From Chloroflexota bacterium (GTDB taxonomy: Bacteria; Chloroflexota; Dehalococcoidia; GIF9; UBA5629), in NCBI GenBank assembly GCA_036821185.1, contig DAISKD010000004.1, positions 6,063-70,062 on the forward strand: a stretch of 64,000 nucleotides of DNA, written 5' to 3'. Every line of letters begins with the position of its first letter. The stretch's first letter is position 1. Positions 4,266 to 62,056 of this stretch are shown in pieces. Both the position numbers and the translations under genes were made by a program. The notes beneath the pieces were generated by a model, which searched no databases, was not told the DNA's origin, and worked only from the letters and a program-made list of their open reading frames with translations.

Positions 4266-5203
4266 ACCAAATGGGCGACCCAGATAGTCCTGATAAAGAT
4301 AAAGGTAACTGGCTATACGACCCAATAAACCCTAACCTCTTCCAGCTCCATAGGATAAAGCGACGGATATACTCGGAGCGGACAGAATTCCAGTATCTGG
4401 AGATAGTGGAAACAGCCAGCTTCGGGATATGCTTGGTACTGGATGGAAGAATCCAGTCCAGCGAGCGCGACGAGTTCATCTATCACGAGGCGCTGGTCCA
4501 CCCGGTCATGCTGGCACATGATAGCCCCCAGACCGTTTTCATCGCCGGGGGAGGCGAAGGTGCCACATTACGAGAGGTGCTAAAGCACAAGACCGTTAAA
4601 AGAGTGGTCATGGTGGATATAGACAGGCGTGTGATAGATGTCTGCCAGCACCATCTTCCTGCTTTTCACCAGGGCTCATTTGAGGATGCCCGCCTCGATC
4701 TCCACTTCGCCGACGCTAGAAAATACCTTGAACAGACCTCGGAAAACTTCGATGTGGCAATAATAGACCTGGTAGAGCCGATAAAAGAGGGACCAGCCTG
4801 CCTGCTGTACACACGGGAATTCTACCAGCTCGTTAGAAGCAGGCTAGCCCCCCGCGGTATTCTTTGCACCCAGTCCAGCGCCGCCGGCTGGGCAAACCTT
4901 TCCCTGTTTACTGCAATAGTCAACACATTGAAAAGCATTTTTCCCATAGCCCGCCCCTACCACATCTATGTCCCCTCATTTGTCGATATGTGGGGGTTCA
5001 CCGCAGCCTCAGAAAGCATCGACGCAAGCAAGCTATCCCCCCGAGAGGTCAACCGCAGAATTGCCACCAGAATGGTAACAAAGCCCAAGTCTTACGACGG
5101 GCTTTCCCATCTGGCTATGTTCACCCTCCCCAGACATATCCGCCGCCGCGTGGCATCCACCCAGAGGATCGCCACGGACAACACCCCCTTTGTCATCCGC
5201 TGA
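4262..5203 (+). CDS. speE: Polyamine aminopropyltransferase (spermidine synthase)
   Basis: LVLDGRIQSSERDEFIYHEALVHP, IAGGGEGATLREV, FDVAIIDL; overlaps the speD stop. Confidence 0.95.
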   Translation: MNQMGDPDSPDKDKGNWLYDPINPNLFQLHRIKRRIYSERTEFQYLEIVETASFGICLVLDGRIQSSERDEFIYHEALVHPVMLAHDSPQTVFIAGGGEGATLREVLKHKTVKRVVMVDIDRRVIDVCQHHLPAFHQGSFEDARLDLHFADARKYLEQTSENFDVAIIDLVEPIKEGPACLLYTREFYQLVRSRLAPRGILCTQSSAAGWANLSLFTAIVNTLKSIFPIARPYHIYVPSFVDMWGFTAASESIDASKLSPREVNRRIATRMVTKPKSYDGLSHLAMFTLPRHIRRRVASTQRIATDNTPFVIR

Positions 5204-7577: not shown

Positions 7578-8906
7578 CTAACCGCCCTTGGTAGCTACCG
7601 ACAGGCCTCGGCAATACAAACACGGGGTCAGCAACATACCCTCCACCCATCTTCTTTCCTTCCCGATGCCCTCAATCCGATTCAACACCTGGTACACATT
7701 ACCCGATACCATCGTGTCCTTCACCCTGCCTACAATCTCTCCATCCTCCACTTTGTAGCCCAGCAGGACGTTGCCACTGAAATCGCCGTTAAGCACATTT
7801 CCCTGTTCAGCACCCATCACCAGCTCCACCACCAGCCCTTCTTTGACGTCCCTCACCATGTCCCAGAAATTACCGTCCCCCTCGCCAACCACCAGCGAGC
7901 TGGGGTGGGGCGCGGGCAATCCGCCCTGCCGGTTGCCATTGCCAGTGCTCGTGGAACCGGAAAGGGCTGCAGTATGCAGGTCGTAAAGAAAATGGGCCAC
8001 CACCCCACGCTCCACCAGCGCTGTCCGTTGACCGGGCACCCCCTCATCATCACAGGGATAGCTACGGGACTGTAAAGGTAAAGTGGCATCGTCCCACAGG
8101 TTAAACCTGGCATCAAATGCCTGCTCTCCCAACTTGTCTTTCAACGGTGAAGCTCCGTCATAGACGACCTTGCCATTAAACGCTGCTACAAGCGAGGGCA
8201 GGAGACAACTGGCAACTCCATAGGCAGTGAAAATCACCGGCATCGCCCCTCCCTTGATACTTGCATTCCGCTTCGCCAATTCAAGCTGTCTTATCACCTC
8301 CTCAGCCACCGGTTTGAACTCCGTCAGCCGGCGACAAGAGCTCCGACTATCGCCGACAAACAGCATATCCTCTCCCCTGACCAACATACCATCGATGCCT
8401 ATTCTGAAATAACTCTTCCTGTAGCTGGCTTCACCGCCATTAGAGTTAATCAGGCGCACGGAGATGATCCGCTTTGTCACCACAGCATCGCACAAAAGTT
8501 CAGGCGTATGTGACCGAACAACGTCGATAAGCCCTTGCCCCAACTCAGCCATATCCTCGATAGGTACCCCGTCCACTTCGGGGTCAAAGGTCTCCACCGG
8601 TGCATGATCCACCCTCGCAGGAAAAGAAAAACTTTCAGGTACATCGAAGTAGCAAGCCTCCAGTGCCATCTGCACCAGGTCCACCGGCTTAATAAAGCCG
8701 CTTGCCTGGGCAAAGCCAGCTTTGCCTTTTCTTATGATCCTGAGCGCGGTGACGGTGCTCTCCCTGGTTTCCACCTGCTTCAACCGGTTGGCATGAAAAT
8801 GCACTGGCGTCGCCGCCGACACCGTCTGAAACACTTCAGCCTGCTCCGCCACCTCTTTAGCTTTCTCCAGGACCTCTTCTACTATTGTTTGCCTCCCACT
8901 AGACAT
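7578..8906 (-). CDS. pmbA: TldD/PmbA family protein (PmbA/TldE-like subunit)
   Basis: DDEGVPGQRTALVERGVVAHFLYD, GDFSG, VKDTMVSGN; ATG 8906 chosen as start. Confidence 0.8.
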   Translation of the reverse strand: MSSGRQTIVEEVLEKAKEVAEQAEVFQTVSAATPVHFHANRLKQVETRESTVTALRIIRKGKAGFAQASGFIKPVDLVQMALEACYFDVPESFSFPARVDHAPVETFDPEVDGVPIEDMAELGQGLIDVVRSHTPELLCDAVVTKRIISVRLINSNGGEASYRKSYFRIGIDGMLVRGEDMLFVGDSRSSCRRLTEFKPVAEEVIRQLELAKRNASIKGGAMPVIFTAYGVASCLLPSLVAAFNGKVVYDGASPLKDKLGEQAFDARFNLWDDATLPLQSRSYPCDDEGVPGQRTALVERGVVAHFLYDLHTAALSGSTSTGNGNRQGGLPAPHPSSLVVGEGDGNFWDMVRDVKEGLVVELVMGAEQGNVLNGDFSGNVLLGYKVEDGEIVGRVKDTMVSGNVYQVLNRIEGIGKERRWVEGMLLTPCLYCRGLSVATKGG

Positions 8907-58123: not shown

Positions 58124-61120
58124 CTATAGCCCCTCAGTGAAGGTGGAAAGGGCGATGGGCAGAAAAGCTTCCACAAGCTGTGGGTCAAACTGGCTGCCAG
58201 CGCATCGCTTTAACTCTGCTATCGCCTCCTGATAGGACAAGGCACCACGATAGGGACGCGATGAGGTCATAGCATCAAATGCATCGGCTATGGCCAGTAT
58301 ACGTGCCTCAATAGGAATATTTTCCCCTTTCAGTCCTGTAGGATAGCCACTCCCGTCCCATCGCTCGTGGTGGTGGAGGATAGCTGGCACACAAGAGACT
58401 AAGTCAAGCACATGGCTCACGATAGTCGTTGACAATTTGGGGTGGGCACGGACCATTTCCCACGCCTGCGCGTCAAGGGCTCCCGGTCTGTTCAGCACCT
58501 CGTCAGGGATCCCTATCTTGCCGATATCGTGGAGCAGGGCAGCGGTGCTGATCACGGCCACCTTTTCTGGCGATAAGTCTAACTTCTCGGCTAAGGCAAC
58601 GGCGTAGTTACTCACCTTTCTAGAGTGCCCGTAAGTATACCGGTCTTTAGCTTCGATCGTAGCTGCCAGTGCGTATATAACATTGAGGGCTTCTTTATCG
58701 GAAGCTGTCCCAGGCATCGAAGCTACCGCAGTGCTCAAAATCCGAGACACGATACAGGTACGGTCACCACCTGTCTTCTTTGCATAATAGAGAGCCCTAT
58801 CCGCAGCGCTGAGTAGCGCATCAGGCATTACCCCGTCATTGGGCCAGGTGGCTATACCTACGCTGGCCGTTATCCTAGGGTCGACCTTGCCCATCTCCTG
58901 AGCAATCCTGCCACGGATGCGCTCGGCAACCACAAAAGCTGCAGCGGAGTCCGTCTGAGGTAGCAGTATAGCAAACTCATCACCATCATAGCGGAAAGAG
59001 AGGTCAGTGCTCCTCACCGACCGCTGGATTATCCTCCCTACATCAGCCAGCAGCTTATCGCCAGCCGCATGGCCATGGACATCGTTGTACGCCTTGAAAA
59101 GGTCGAGGTCCAGCAAGATCAAAGAAAATGTGCCACCGTATCTCTGGCGTAAGTCTATCTCTTGCTTCAACCGTTCATCGAAATGACGCCTGTTGAACAG
59201 CCCGGTAACCTCGTCTACCCTTGCCCTTTGCTCAGCCCTGCCATAGAGGCGGCTGTTCTCCACCGGCACTGCTATTTGTGCAGCCAGGCGCTCGAGCAAT
59301 GACACTTGCTCCTGCGTGTATGCATTGGGTCTGCGACTGGCAATTATCAGTCCTCCGATGGGCTCGCCTTTGGCGATCAGAGGTAGATAGACTATTGACC
59401 GGATGTCCTGCTTGAGGTGCAGGTCTCCAGTCCAGAACTTTCGACTTTCAGACAGGTCGGACTCAAACAGGGCTTTACGGTACTTCAGTACCCACTCCGT
59501 ACCCGTCCCCTCCAGAGGAATTCTATCTCCTTGCTGCCACGGCGAATCGATATCTGTAGCAAACAGAGCCTCAAAAACAAGCTCTTCTCCATCGACCAGC
59601 GCGATGGCTGCCCAGTCCACATCCACAACCTTTTTCAGCTCAGCCACAAAGGCAGCGTATACCTCTTGGATATTAAGGCTCGAGGTCATCACCCTGACCA
59701 GTTCATTTATCAGCGCTAGCTCCTGTTCCCGTTTTCTTAGTTGCTCGTGGAAATATTCCTTCTCTAAATTCGCAGCTAGCTGCTTGGTTACCGACTCCAG
59801 CAGCGCAATATCCTCGGCAGAATATCTCCCCGACCTCTTCCTACTAAGCGCCAGGATGGCAATTAGATTGTCGTCATTGATTAGAGGGAGGAGCAGTTCG
59901 AGATCCAGAGCTTGAAGCTGCGCTTTTACCTCGGCACCGAGATACATGAACTCCGGCGAAACCTCTATCTCATCACGCAGGAGATACCTGCGCTCGCGCT
60001 TTAACCACCTGACGATGGGAGTGTACTTGCCGATGCTCAGTGAGGAAGCGTCTACGCCTTTGGGCTCGACGAAGCTCGCCTTATAACTGCCGTCATTCGG
60101 TACAGGCAGCAGCAGCGCCGCCGATTTGGCGCCTAGACTGCCGGCAATCAGGGGCAGCAACTTATGCGCCAGCTCCGTTAAACTAGGAGTACGAGGTAGT
60201 TCACTGTTTACAAAATACAGCAACCTGTGACGATAGTTGCGCTCTCTCCTGCCTACAAACAATTGCTCCATGCCGGTGAAGATCAAGCCCCTCAGCCCAT
60301 AAGCGACGCCAACAACTATTATTGCTGAGACAGCAGAGACTCCCAGCGCCAGCCAGTCGAATGACTTGCCGGCAAGCCAATAAGCCAAAGCAAGGAGGCA
60401 GGCATAGACTGCAACACCGGCAAATATCAGGCCCACCCAGGCTAATGCCCGCCGCAGCACGATCTGTATGTCCAACAAACGGTGTTTCAGCAGCGCATAG
60501 GCCAAGGTAGCAGCAGTCAATAACGCGCCTACGCCAGCCACAGGATAACGCTTGCCGAAGTCGCTGAAAGCGTTCAGTAAGCTGAAACACGCCATCAGCA
60601 CGATGCCGAATAGCAGGTACATGTACTGATTGCGCCACAGCGGGTCAGTGATGGCTCCGAGCCTCCGACATAGCAGGTAAAAGTCCCTGCCAAACAGGAC
60701 CGCTAAGGCGGCTGGCAGGACAAAGGCCCACTTGTGATAGACCGGAACAGCGACGCCATTGTCTACCTTGAGGTCAGTCACAACGTAACCAGCCAGCACC
60801 ATGCCCACCAGGGCTACCATCAAGATGTAAGCAAAGGGAAAACGCAGTCCCCTGTTATCGTAAAAGGAGGCAAGAAAATAGTGGATCTGTACCGCTGCCC
60901 AGATGAACAAGTAGGCCGTGATCTGAAGCAAAAAAAGTCCATGCTGCGCAAAAAAGTTACTGCGAAAAAGAAAGTCACTCCATGTCCACAGGATGGTGGC
61001 GAGTACACACAGGGCAAAGAGTTTTTGTTGTCTGCCCCACGGACGATTAAGTAAAACTACTACACCCAACAGGACGAAGGCTACCGCGGTCACCAGGGAA
61101 ATCAATGCTGCTGCATTCAT
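58124..61120 (-). CDS. Membrane-bound GAF-GAF-GGDEF-HD-GYP c-di-GMP signalling protein
   Basis: About 7 N-terminal TM helices, two GAF-like regions, DEVTGLFNRR, DLDLFKAYND, RSTD...DGDEF, LHDIGKIG, HHERWDGSGYP.GL. Confidence 0.92.
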   Translation of the reverse strand: MNAAALISLVTAVAFVLLGVVVLLNRPWGRQQKLFALCVLATILWTWSDFLFRSNFFAQHGLFLLQITAYLFIWAAVQIHYFLASFYDNRGLRFPFAYILMVALVGMVLAGYVVTDLKVDNGVAVPVYHKWAFVLPAALAVLFGRDFYLLCRRLGAITDPLWRNQYMYLLFGIVLMACFSLLNAFSDFGKRYPVAGVGALLTAATLAYALLKHRLLDIQIVLRRALAWVGLIFAGVAVYACLLALAYWLAGKSFDWLALGVSAVSAIIVVGVAYGLRGLIFTGMEQLFVGRRERNYRHRLLYFVNSELPRTPSLTELAHKLLPLIAGSLGAKSAALLLPVPNDGSYKASFVEPKGVDASSLSIGKYTPIVRWLKRERRYLLRDEIEVSPEFMYLGAEVKAQLQALDLELLLPLINDDNLIAILALSRKRSGRYSAEDIALLESVTKQLAANLEKEYFHEQLRKREQELALINELVRVMTSSLNIQEVYAAFVAELKKVVDVDWAAIALVDGEELVFEALFATDIDSPWQQGDRIPLEGTGTEWVLKYRKALFESDLSESRKFWTGDLHLKQDIRSIVYLPLIAKGEPIGGLIIASRRPNAYTQEQVSLLERLAAQIAVPVENSRLYGRAEQRARVDEVTGLFNRRHFDERLKQEIDLRQRYGGTFSLILLDLDLFKAYNDVHGHAAGDKLLADVGRIIQRSVRSTDLSFRYDGDEFAILLPQTDSAAAFVVAERIRGRIAQEMGKVDPRITASVGIATWPNDGVMPDALLSAADRALYYAKKTGGDRTCIVSRILSTAVASMPGTASDKEALNVIYALAATIEAKDRYTYGHSRKVSNYAVALAEKLDLSPEKVAVISTAALLHDIGKIGIPDEVLNRPGALDAQAWEMVRAHPKLSTTIVSHVLDLVSCVPAILHHHERWDGSGYPTGLKGENIPIEARILAIADAFDAMTSSRPYRGALSYQEAIAELKRCAGSQFDPQLVEAFLPIALSTFTEGL

Positions 61121-61149: not shown

Positions 61150-61184
61150 AAAAAATGAGACCGACCCTTCTCGGGTCGGTCTCA
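61150..61184 (-). terminator. Intrinsic terminator (riboswitch expression platform)
   Basis: Perfect 12-bp stem TGAGACCGACCC/GGGTCGGTCTCA, 5-nt loop, T6, about 30 nt before the ATG at 61120. Confidence 0.92.
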
Positions 61185-61244
61185 CTACTTGCTCCACACC
61201 AGCTAAGTGACCGCATTGCCGCTGATGCTTCATCGCACCCCGAA
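61171..61244 (-). ncRNA. c-di-GMP-II-class riboswitch aptamer (variant pocket)
   Basis: Minus strand: UCGGG-gUGC-GAUGAA-GCAUCAGC-ggcaaugcGGUCACUUa-GCUGGUGU-GGA-GCA-AGUAGUGAGACCGA-CCCGA. P1 UCGGG/CCCGA, UGC/GCA, kink-turn GAUGA/GGA, 8-bp stem and pseudoknot UCAC/GUGA all form, matching the recalled class II consensus (GAUGAA...GGGCACUU...AGUAGUGCAACCGACC). Confidence 0.85.
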
Positions 61245-61327
61245 CCAGATCGGCCGCTTAGGGCTATATTCTCCTGTATTTACTCCTCCGACTCTGACTC
61301 CTGACTTACCAGCGTAGCTGGTCGGTA

Positions 61328-61356
61328 AATTTAACATAACTTCTACGCTTTGTCAA
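61328..61356 (-). promoter_or_regulatory. Promoter driving the riboswitch leader
   Basis: TTGACA (61356-61351), 17 bp, TGtTAAATT (-10 at 61333-61328). Confidence 0.8.
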
Positions 61357-61381: not shown

Positions 61382-62056
61382 TCATCTTCTGCGAAACAGC
61401 TGAAAGAAGCGATCCTGGTATTCTTGAAACAATCCCCAGCGCCCGAGCTCGGTAGCCAGTTCCTGAGCCCAGCGCAGGTCACGTTCAGCCTTTGAGAACA
61501 ATTCCTCGATGTAGTGACGCGCGTCCCGTGGTATCCCTGCAGCATCGATGCTCAGCAGCCCCCTGCGTTCAAACTCCGCCACATTGGCATATACCGAGCT
61601 CTGGGTCAGTTCATAAGTGAACTTGAGCAACGAGACGTCCCACATCTCCTCAACGCCTTTTATGATGGCAGCCAAGGGGTCGCGCTGGCTATCTATCCGA
61701 CGATTTATCTTTTCCACTATCGCCGCCACAGGCTCCGAGACGATGTTCATCTCTTTGGGCTCGTTCTTGTAGCTATAAAAGATCCCCGGTTCGTGAGGAT
61801 GCTGCTCTGCCATCATTTCTATGAACCTCCTCGCCCCAGTACTGAACCCCTCAAGGTTTATCAAGTAGCTCGGCGTCACGATCTTGGGCCGGGCGGCAAT
61901 CACCCTGCCTTCTCTCACCACATTTACCCACTCGGTGAGTTCGGTTATCAGGTAATAATATATGTTGGTGCTACCAAAAGTGGCTAAACTCTGCTTCGGT
62001 GCTCTGAGCACCTTGGTATTTTCGATGGCGTTTTGGATCTTCTCGTCTACTTCCAC
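61382..62056 (-). CDS. Conserved hypothetical protein
   Basis: Long ORF (LATFGSTNIYYYLITE, VREGRVIAARPKIVTPSYL); function not recognised. Confidence 0.75.
   Translation of the reverse strand: MEVDEKIQNAIENTKVLRAPKQSLATFGSTNIYYYLITELTEWVNVVREGRVIAARPKIVTPSYLINLEGFSTGARRFIEMMAEQHPHEPGIFYSYKNEPKEMNIVSEPVAAIVEKINRRIDSQRDPLAAIIKGVEEMWDVSLLKFTYELTQSSVYANVAEFERRGLLSIDAAGIPRDARHYIEELFSKAERDLRWAQELATELGRWGLFQEYQDRFFQLFRRR

Follow-up and report, generated by a model that had tools for sequence, protein, structure and literature searches.

A stretch of 64,000 nucleotides from a Chloroflexota bacterium (contig DAISKD010000004.1, positions 6,063 to 70,062, the whole of which is called the window below) carries, on its minus strand, a candidate riboswitch of the class II cyclic di-GMP (c-di-GMP-II) type ahead of a gene for a 998-amino-acid (aa) protein with GAF, GGDEF and HD-GYP domains. 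An earlier note, made from the sequence letters, had described the element as a variant riboswitch with an altered binding pocket, acting as an ON switch. Reading of the sequence together with the list of open reading frames (ORFs) and predicted folds gave the minus-strand order of promoter, leader of approximately 72 nt, aptamer, overlapping terminator, purine-rich ribosome binding site (RBS) and ATG start codon. The features are given below, those of the aptamer being taken from its alignment to the Rfam model RF01786.

61356–61328, minus strand: sigma-70-like promoter, with TTGACA at 61356–61351, a 17-nt spacer, an extended −10 TG and TAAATT at 61333–61328
61322–61250, minus strand: 5′ leader of about 72 nt ahead of the aptamer, with a 5′-proximal hairpin and purine-rich AGGAG repeats
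61249–61165, minus strand: c-di-GMP-II-type aptamer, the match to RF01786
61244–61239 with 61175–61170, minus strand: helix P1
61237–61235 with 61192–61190, minus strand: helix P2
61234–61229 opposite 61195–61193, minus strand: internal loop, GAUGAA opposite GGA
61228–61221 with 61203–61196, minus strand: helix P3
61213–61206, minus strand: 5′ strand of the pseudoknot, in the P3 loop, C-GG-UCACU, with C61213 equivalent to U37 and U61210 equivalent to G40
61186–61177, minus strand: 3′ strand of the pseudoknot and pocket, AGUGA-GA-CCG
61184–61150, minus strand: intrinsic terminator with a 12-bp stem, formed of arm UGAGACCGACCC (61184–61173), a GAGAA loop (61172–61168), arm GGGUCGGUCUCA (61167–61156) and U6 (61155–61150)
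61139–61129, minus strand: RBS AAGGGAGAGAG, followed by the ATG at 61120–61118, downstream of the terminator and outside it
61120–58124, minus strand: the regulated gene (998 aa), encoding a multi-pass membrane N-terminus and two GAF, one GGDEF and one HD-GYP (HD_5) domain as identified with Pfam
58980–59000, minus strand: decayed GGDEF motif, residues ~708–716 of the 998-aa protein

The aptamer was the sole Rfam match in the whole window, with a score of 60.8 bits against RF01786 (gathering threshold 53.5 bits; E-value 4.7e-11 for the 64-kb window) over model positions 1–84 of 84. Two lower-scoring matches of the same clan at this site were suppressed, the search having been run in gathering mode with the best clan member kept. 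From P1 to P1 the core spans 61244–61170 (~74 nt); P1 is short at 5–6 bp, and the pseudoknot between 61213–61206 and 61186–61177 is broken by a two-base bulge, G61181-A61180. An alignment of 23 related aptamers on a hand-written structure that included the pseudoknot had 89.9% of its cells paired, with double-sided changes in 18 of the 25 pairs. None of 500 shuffles reached the observed values, and slid controls were 34–42% paired. The pseudoknot was examined in a further set of 108 unique aptamers at loop and 3′-strand positions that had been left as N in the search pattern. The unconstrained pair was A/T in 47 aptamers and G/C in 59, with a mismatch in two (106 of 108 paired), and the next pair was C/G in 100, T/A in six and C/A in two. 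Pairing at unconstrained positions is a direct test of the pseudoknot. The above-gathering score and the four helices with covariation, pseudoknot included, confirm that the locus holds a real class II c-di-GMP-type aptamer. The 74-nt aptamer with all class II helices and the co-varying pseudoknot that the earlier note had put forward were accordingly recovered, and the Rfam covariance-model search that it had proposed as a check returned a significant, full-length match above gathering. The minimum free energy (MFE) fold of the aptamer alone did not recover the native fold and was no better than shuffles (z −0.11), which is to be expected, as MFE programs model neither pseudoknots nor the ligand.

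The promoter, located where it had first been read, matches 10 of 12 consensus positions, has a TG ahead of the −10 and was the only match in the 800 nt scanned. Judged from its position, transcription would start at approximately 61321. The leader begins with a hairpin, ACCAGC-UAC-GCUGGU (61322–61308), which appears in the MFE fold. As a whole the leader was no more stable in folding than shuffles, and no start codon was found within it (61250–61322, minus strand). The upstream 224-aa ORF ends at 61382. The element lies in the 5′ untranslated region (UTR) on the sense strand and is coupled to an expression platform, as is expected of a member of the variant family RF03169 discussed below.

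The c-di-GMP-II class is reportedly due to Lee et al. in 2010, and the Clostridium acetobutylicum structure 3Q3Z to Smith et al. in 2011. The nucleotides that bind the ligand in 3Q3Z are A13, A14, U37, G39, U60, A61, C68, A69, A70, C71, C72, G73 and A74 (review PMC7288161). Aligned to RF01786, the 3′ strand of the window aptamer reads GUGAGACCG (61185–61177) against the consensus GUGCAACCG, and the loop reads CGGUCAC (61213–61207) against UGGGCAC, with the match line blank at the two changed 3′-strand positions. The pocket changes are therefore C68 to A, with a compensating change of G40 to U, A69 to G and U37 to C; A61182 is equivalent to C68, G61181 to A69 and A61180 to A70, with CCG at 61179–61177. 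The contacts G39, A70, C71, C72, G73 and A74 are kept, and the core outside the altered signature is intact. The class II fold is present, yet the canonical contact identity is not, and by its sequence the aptamer is not a canonical member of the class.

The consensus of the c-di-GMP-II-GAG family (RF03169), ...CGGuCGCC...GGCGAGACCG..., has the same three changes, and its signature nucleotides, a P3 loop with CGGUC and a 3′ strand with G(N)GAGACCG, are found in the window. With a gathering threshold of 40 bits, RF03169 was the best model on a Dehalococcoidia paralogous copy that is 87.5% identical to that of the window (L018, 62.7 bits), on an Anaerolineae copy (L017, 65.7 bits), on a Mycobacteriales copy (L016, 54.9 bits) and on an orthologous copy (L145, 54.6 bits). 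The canonical RF01786 outscores RF03169 on the copy in the window, and because it wins the clan competition there this copy is labelled canonical in annotation. As read from these signature positions, the window aptamer is of the catalogued GAG variant subtype, a Chloroflexota representative of a known and abundant class. The altered ligand-contacting region and the loop change of U to C noticed at the outset hold up, since C68, A69 and U37 are all in the published contact list. So does the suggested resemblance to c-di-GMP-II-GAG, with the qualification that RF01786 gives the window copy the higher score. The GAG variant is said to have been defined by Weinberg et al. in PNAS in 2017.

A scan of the genome collection in which G was required at the A69 position and the loop was left free gave 19 loci with 17 Rfam-supported aptamers; the other two pattern matches (L001 and L013), with no Rfam support, were set aside as chance. 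The GCG type (GUGCGACCG) was found in Deinococcus, other Deinococcales and one Alkaliphilus, and the GAG type, with the same 3′ strand as the window, in Dehalococcoidia, Anaerolineae and one Mycobacteriales metagenome-assembled genome (MAG). C was present at the U37 position in 16 of the 17 aptamers, only that of Alkaliphilus (L019) keeping U. A GAG-specific scan of metagenomes gave at least 118 stretches. A scan of viral contigs for canonical aptamers, made to tabulate positions 37 and 69, gave one match, which was not riboswitch-like. It was also observed that the Alkaliphilus serpentinus locus L019 carries a c-di-GMP-I riboswitch (77 bits, 4988–5073) and a GCG-type c-di-GMP-II aptamer (68.7 bits, 7838–7921) within 3 kb on the same strand.

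The terminator, a GC-rich stem-loop with a U tract, has a predicted stability of −26.8 kcal/mol (z −7.3), with none of 200 shuffles as stable, and is the dominant feature when the whole leader is folded to its MFE. Its 5′ arm consists entirely of aptamer sequence, namely three pseudoknot bases, six pocket bases and three P1 bases, and the bound aptamer and the terminator are therefore mutually exclusive. The same overlap of aptamer and terminator, followed by a T tract, occurs in L005, L007, L018, L017 and L004 and in the orthologous loci L139, L144 and L145, and differences in loop and stem among related copies leave the terminator hairpin intact. The RBS follows 11–21 nt past the U tract. 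A rule-based terminator scan did not list the hairpin at 61184–61150, though it is the strongest terminator in the region; additional A-U and G-U pairs probably lengthen the stem at the expense of the U tract, as the MFE fold shows, so that fewer than five U remain for the scan to recognise. Ligand-bound c-di-GMP-II riboswitches are reported to turn expression ON (review PMC7583470). As the overlap is real and conserved across four orthologous and several paralogous loci, ON wiring is the natural reading for the window as well, and the 12-bp terminator drawing its 5′ arm from the aptamer, on which the earlier note had based this wiring, stands.

The N-terminal third of the 998-aa protein is hydrophobic. 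Its HD-GYP motifs, HDIGK and HHERWDGSGYP, are intact (Pfam HD_5, 1.3e-42), and full-length alignments of the domain were obtained with PmGH (4mcw, 131 bits per domain), V-cGAP3 (5z7c, 117 bits) and PA4781 (4r8z); the domain is predicted to be active. In the GGDEF domain the motif is a degenerate RYDGDEF, with the RxxD I-site (RSTD) and the guanine-specifying Asp (GHAAGD) kept. The GG[DE]EF active-site motif of diguanylate cyclases is thus missing, though the Pfam GGDEF domain is present, and the cyclase is predicted to be inactive. In GGDEF domains this Asp specifies guanine, and the cGAMP-making Hypr GGDEFs have Ser or Thr in its place. A reading of the domain as a Hypr-GGDEF, a cyclic GMP-AMP (cGAMP) synthase, was rejected as the Asp is retained. 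When the proteins P0001–P0036 were compared, RYDGDEF was found in the window protein and P0002–P0004, RYDGDTF in P0005 and RYEGDEF in P0007 and P0008. The canonical RYGGDEF was found in all distant orthologs and in P0006, so that the decay of the motif is limited to close relatives of the window protein. This decay tracks the riboswitch imperfectly, with P0006 having GGDEF together with a riboswitch and P0007 having EGDEF and none. From these motifs the 998-aa protein would now be mainly a phosphodiesterase, possibly regulated through the I-site and the GAF domains. The HD-GYP gene first noted downstream of the aptamer was correct as to an intact HD-GYP domain, but the protein is a composite of GAF, degenerate GGDEF and HD-GYP rather than a plain HD-GYP protein.

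The genes downstream of other GAG aptamers were used as a guide to the ligand. In the 111 listed copies with a downstream ORF, Pfam searches identified GT2 glycosyltransferases (six), AsnC-type regulators (six, usually as the second gene), DUF11 proteins (four), BldD (two) and peptidases, with most of the downstream ORFs having no Pfam family. A signal-peptide-like N-terminus was encoded downstream of 72 of these copies. One Chloroflexi-type copy preceded a protein with thioester and Ig-like domains, which is adhesin-like, and a GGDEF/HD-GYP gene was found only downstream of the window copy. In Actinobacteria-like contigs, GAG aptamers were found directly ahead of bldD (L016, 3316–3810; L137, 477–1019; BldD-like_C, E 3e-36). 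BldD is a developmental regulator that binds c-di-GMP, and genes for matrix and adhesins are among the classical outputs of c-di-GMP signalling. As BldD, the matrix and adhesin genes and the GGDEF/HD-GYP gene fit a c-di-GMP regulon, c-di-GMP is favoured, and on gene context the chance that it is the ligand of the window riboswitch is about two in three.

Taken together, the element is probably (a likelihood of roughly 0.65) a transcriptional ON riboswitch with the c-di-GMP-II fold and of the GAG subtype, located in the 5′ UTR of a GAF-GGDEF(degenerate)-HD-GYP gene, with c-di-GMP as the most likely ligand. Without ligand, the hairpin at 61184–61156 would form with its U6 and transcription would end ahead of the gene. 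When ligand is bound, the pseudoknot, the pocket and P1 would sequester the 12 nt of the terminator 5′ arm, polymerase would read through and the phosphodiesterase would be made. High c-di-GMP would in this way induce its own degrading enzyme, a negative feedback.

A number of points weigh against this interpretation. Three of the 13 listed c-di-GMP contact nucleotides differ from the canonical ones, and the abstract of the 2017 variant paper reportedly proposed that the variants might sense a different signalling molecule. The accessible literature gives no binding or termination data for the GAG class; searches for the variant names returned Rfam family lists only, with no demonstrated ligand for GAG or GCG in the accessible papers. 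The associated genes do not allow c-di-GMP to be told apart from related cyclic dinucleotides, and in the GEMM-I precedent gene context failed to distinguish c-di-GMP and cGAMP. The HD-GYP enzymes include V-cGAPs specific for 3′3′-cGAMP, and V-cGAP3 is the top whole-sequence match of the 998-aa protein in the PDB. Completion of P1 and completion of the terminator are separated by only ~15 nt, and switching must therefore be kinetically tight. In addition, no riboswitch lies ahead of the orthologs at 74% (L140), 59%, 55%, 53% and 49% protein identity, even below threshold in permissive Rfam scans; riboswitch control is therefore confined to the closest orthologs, of at least 77% identity, and the gene can do without it. 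Some of these points bear on a pocket (A68-U40, G69, C37) that would have shifted to another nucleotide, such as 3′3′-cGAMP, another cyclic dinucleotide or linear pGpG, within the same architecture and ON wiring, the HD-GYP protein then being the hydrolase of that nucleotide. The three changes of listed contacts are conserved across phyla, and the occurrence of U37C with A69G in all but one of the 17 aptamers of the genome scan suggests a coordinated remodelling of the pocket, although the two could also form a compensating tertiary pair or reflect GC content with the pocket unchanged. There is a precedent, cited in PMC9295807, in which one pocket change turns c-di-GMP-I into a cGAMP sensor. 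The HD-GYP domain also matches the cGAMP-specific V-cGAP3 (E 1.7e-41), but its per-domain score is higher for the c-di-GMP phosphodiesterase PmGH (131 against 117 bits), and the GGDEF domain keeps its Asp (GHAAGD) and not the Ser/Thr of the Hypr type. The gene associations (bldD, exopolysaccharide-type GT2, adhesin-like and GGDEF/HD-GYP) are those of c-di-GMP regulons, and a shifted ligand is accordingly regarded as unlikely.

The remaining explanations leave the pocket aside. The aptamer could be a decaying relic or insensitive to ligand, in which case the hairpin would attenuate or terminate transcription constitutively, or would end that of the upstream 224-aa gene. The aptamer folding no better alone than shuffles, the short P1 and the dispensability of the riboswitch in related genomes would all agree with such a relic. 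The match to RF01786 is nevertheless full-length and above gathering, the nucleotides of the core are intact outside the GAG signature, and substitutions in the orthologous copies compensate one another so as to keep P3 and the terminator. Nor is the hairpin the terminator of the 224-aa gene, because the conserved promoter lies between that gene and the aptamer. Loss of function is on these grounds very improbable. A functional riboswitch wired otherwise, in which ligand turns expression OFF or control is translational, would draw on the fact that the direction is deduced from the layout and that the RBS follows closely behind the terminator. The terminator 5′ arm is however entirely aptamer 3′ strand, so that a bound aptamer excludes the terminator; a separate anti-terminator was not seen on reading the leader, the RBS (61139–61129) is unpaired in the folds, and the hairpin of each related copy is followed by a T tract. 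There is very little likelihood of such wiring, and a c-di-GMP-responsive ON switch remains the preferred reading.

Thirty-five full-length or near-full-length orthologs of the 998-aa protein were found, several of them annotated as Chloroflexi or Dehalococcoidia. Synteny is conserved, with genes for RTC, an MBL-fold hydrolase, the 224-aa ORF, the 998-aa gene, a methyltransferase, an Elp3-like radical SAM enzyme and ABC transporter genes. Orthologs with 85% (L144), 82% (L139) and 77% (L145) protein identity have the riboswitch ahead of their genes, and L139 is identical to L015 in their overlap. These three loci, which were found through the protein and not through the RNA, have the same promoter, leader, aptamer, overlapping terminator and GAGACCG, and compensatory changes preserve P3 and the terminator among the orthologous copies. 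The leader stretch CAGCTACGCTG is invariant across four loci, and the 5′-proximal hairpin (CAGC-UAC-GCUG, invariant) and the AGGAG repeats are likewise conserved in the four. The promoter motif GGTCTTGACAAAG...TTATGTT is kept in L144, L139/L015 and L145 and also in the riboswitch-free L140, which (2326–2503, compared with 61150–61322 of the window) keeps the promoter motif GGTCTTGACAAA but not the ~170 nt containing leader hairpin, aptamer and terminator. The comparison shows that, within a narrow clade, the riboswitch was gained or lost as a cassette. The aptamer-plus-terminator unit of the window is 87–89% identical to copies ahead of a ~330-aa secreted protein in related MAGs, and one MAG, H12_119, carries both types of copy (L015 and L018).

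It should also be noted that breaks in several independent assemblies fall at or just upstream of the riboswitch, at the end of L015 and at the starts of L020 (equivalent to window position 61200), L139 and L145. Such breaks would be expected if each genome held several near-identical aptamer-plus-terminator cassettes of ~100 nt. The window has a GC content of 54% and encodes housekeeping proteins (DnaK, SecA, ValRS, PolX, pyruvate kinase, a Mur ligase and TldD/PmbA), and an identical 998-aa protein is encoded on a contig of more than 1.1 Mb; the locus is on the ordinary chromosome of a Dehalococcoidia-like bacterium. The Elp3-like protein of the window (475 aa, 57325–55898, minus strand, with Radical_SAM and Radical_SAM_C domains) adjoins the methyltransferase in all orthologous loci. 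Homologs of Elp3 are uncommon in bacteria, Dehalococcoides being one genus from which they are known.

The window locus pairs a GAG RNA with a protein of c-di-GMP turnover, and so offers a simple in vitro test of which nucleotide is sensed and of a homeostatic loop. Clan competition in Rfam reports Chloroflexota copies such as this one as canonical, which hides the variant pocket. Close relatives with and without the cassette, which lies between a conserved promoter and the gene, provide a clean case in nature of a riboswitch being gained or lost. A more speculative and rather doubtful proposal is that the GAG pocket (C37, U40-A68, G69), from Chloroflexota to Actinobacteria, would recognise a signal other than c-di-GMP (3′3′-cGAMP, a mixed or non-canonical cyclic dinucleotide, or pGpG), for which the HD-GYP protein with its decayed GGDEF would be the dedicated hydrolase. 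If true, this would give a second nucleotide-signalling circuit in these phyla and a ligand for the variant.

Among known systems, the HD-GYP domain of the window resembles those of PmGH (4MCW), PA4781 (4R8Z) and V-cGAP3 (5Z7C) in its HD, HHE...DG.GYP and downstream Asp. It differs from them in being part of a fusion with a membrane module, two GAF domains and a GGDEF domain whose motif is DGDEF. The change of GEMM-I from c-di-GMP-I to 3′3′-cGAMP sensing in Geobacter is a precedent for a lineage-conserved pocket substitution that alters the ligand while the fold is kept; that fold is unrelated to the present one, and a change of ligand in GAG is hypothetical. With the canonical c-di-GMP-II riboswitches (RF01786, 3Q3Z) the window element shares P1, a 3-bp P2 with the GAUGA/GGA internal loop, the P3 hairpin, the pseudoknot from loop to 3′ strand and the site in the 5′ UTR. 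It departs from them in its three changed contacts, in a host from the Chloroflexota and not the Firmicutes and in a ligand that is predicted; the ON logic reported for the class is, for the window, deduced. The c-di-GMP-II-GCG variant (RF03170) of Deinococcus and Alkaliphilus shares the change of A69 to G, and that of U37 to C in 10 of 11 loci, and some of its copies have the same ON design with terminator overlap (L004), but it keeps the canonical C68-G40 pseudoknot pair and is found in different phyla. With c-di-GMP-II-GAG (RF03169) the window element shares the CGGUC loop, the GAGACCG 3′ strand and similar associated genes for secreted and surface proteins. The Rfam consensus of that family is GC-rich with a UCGCC/GGCGA pseudoknot, whereas the window lineage has UCACU/AGUGA, and the locus is a good example of this already catalogued and abundant variant class rather than of a new one.

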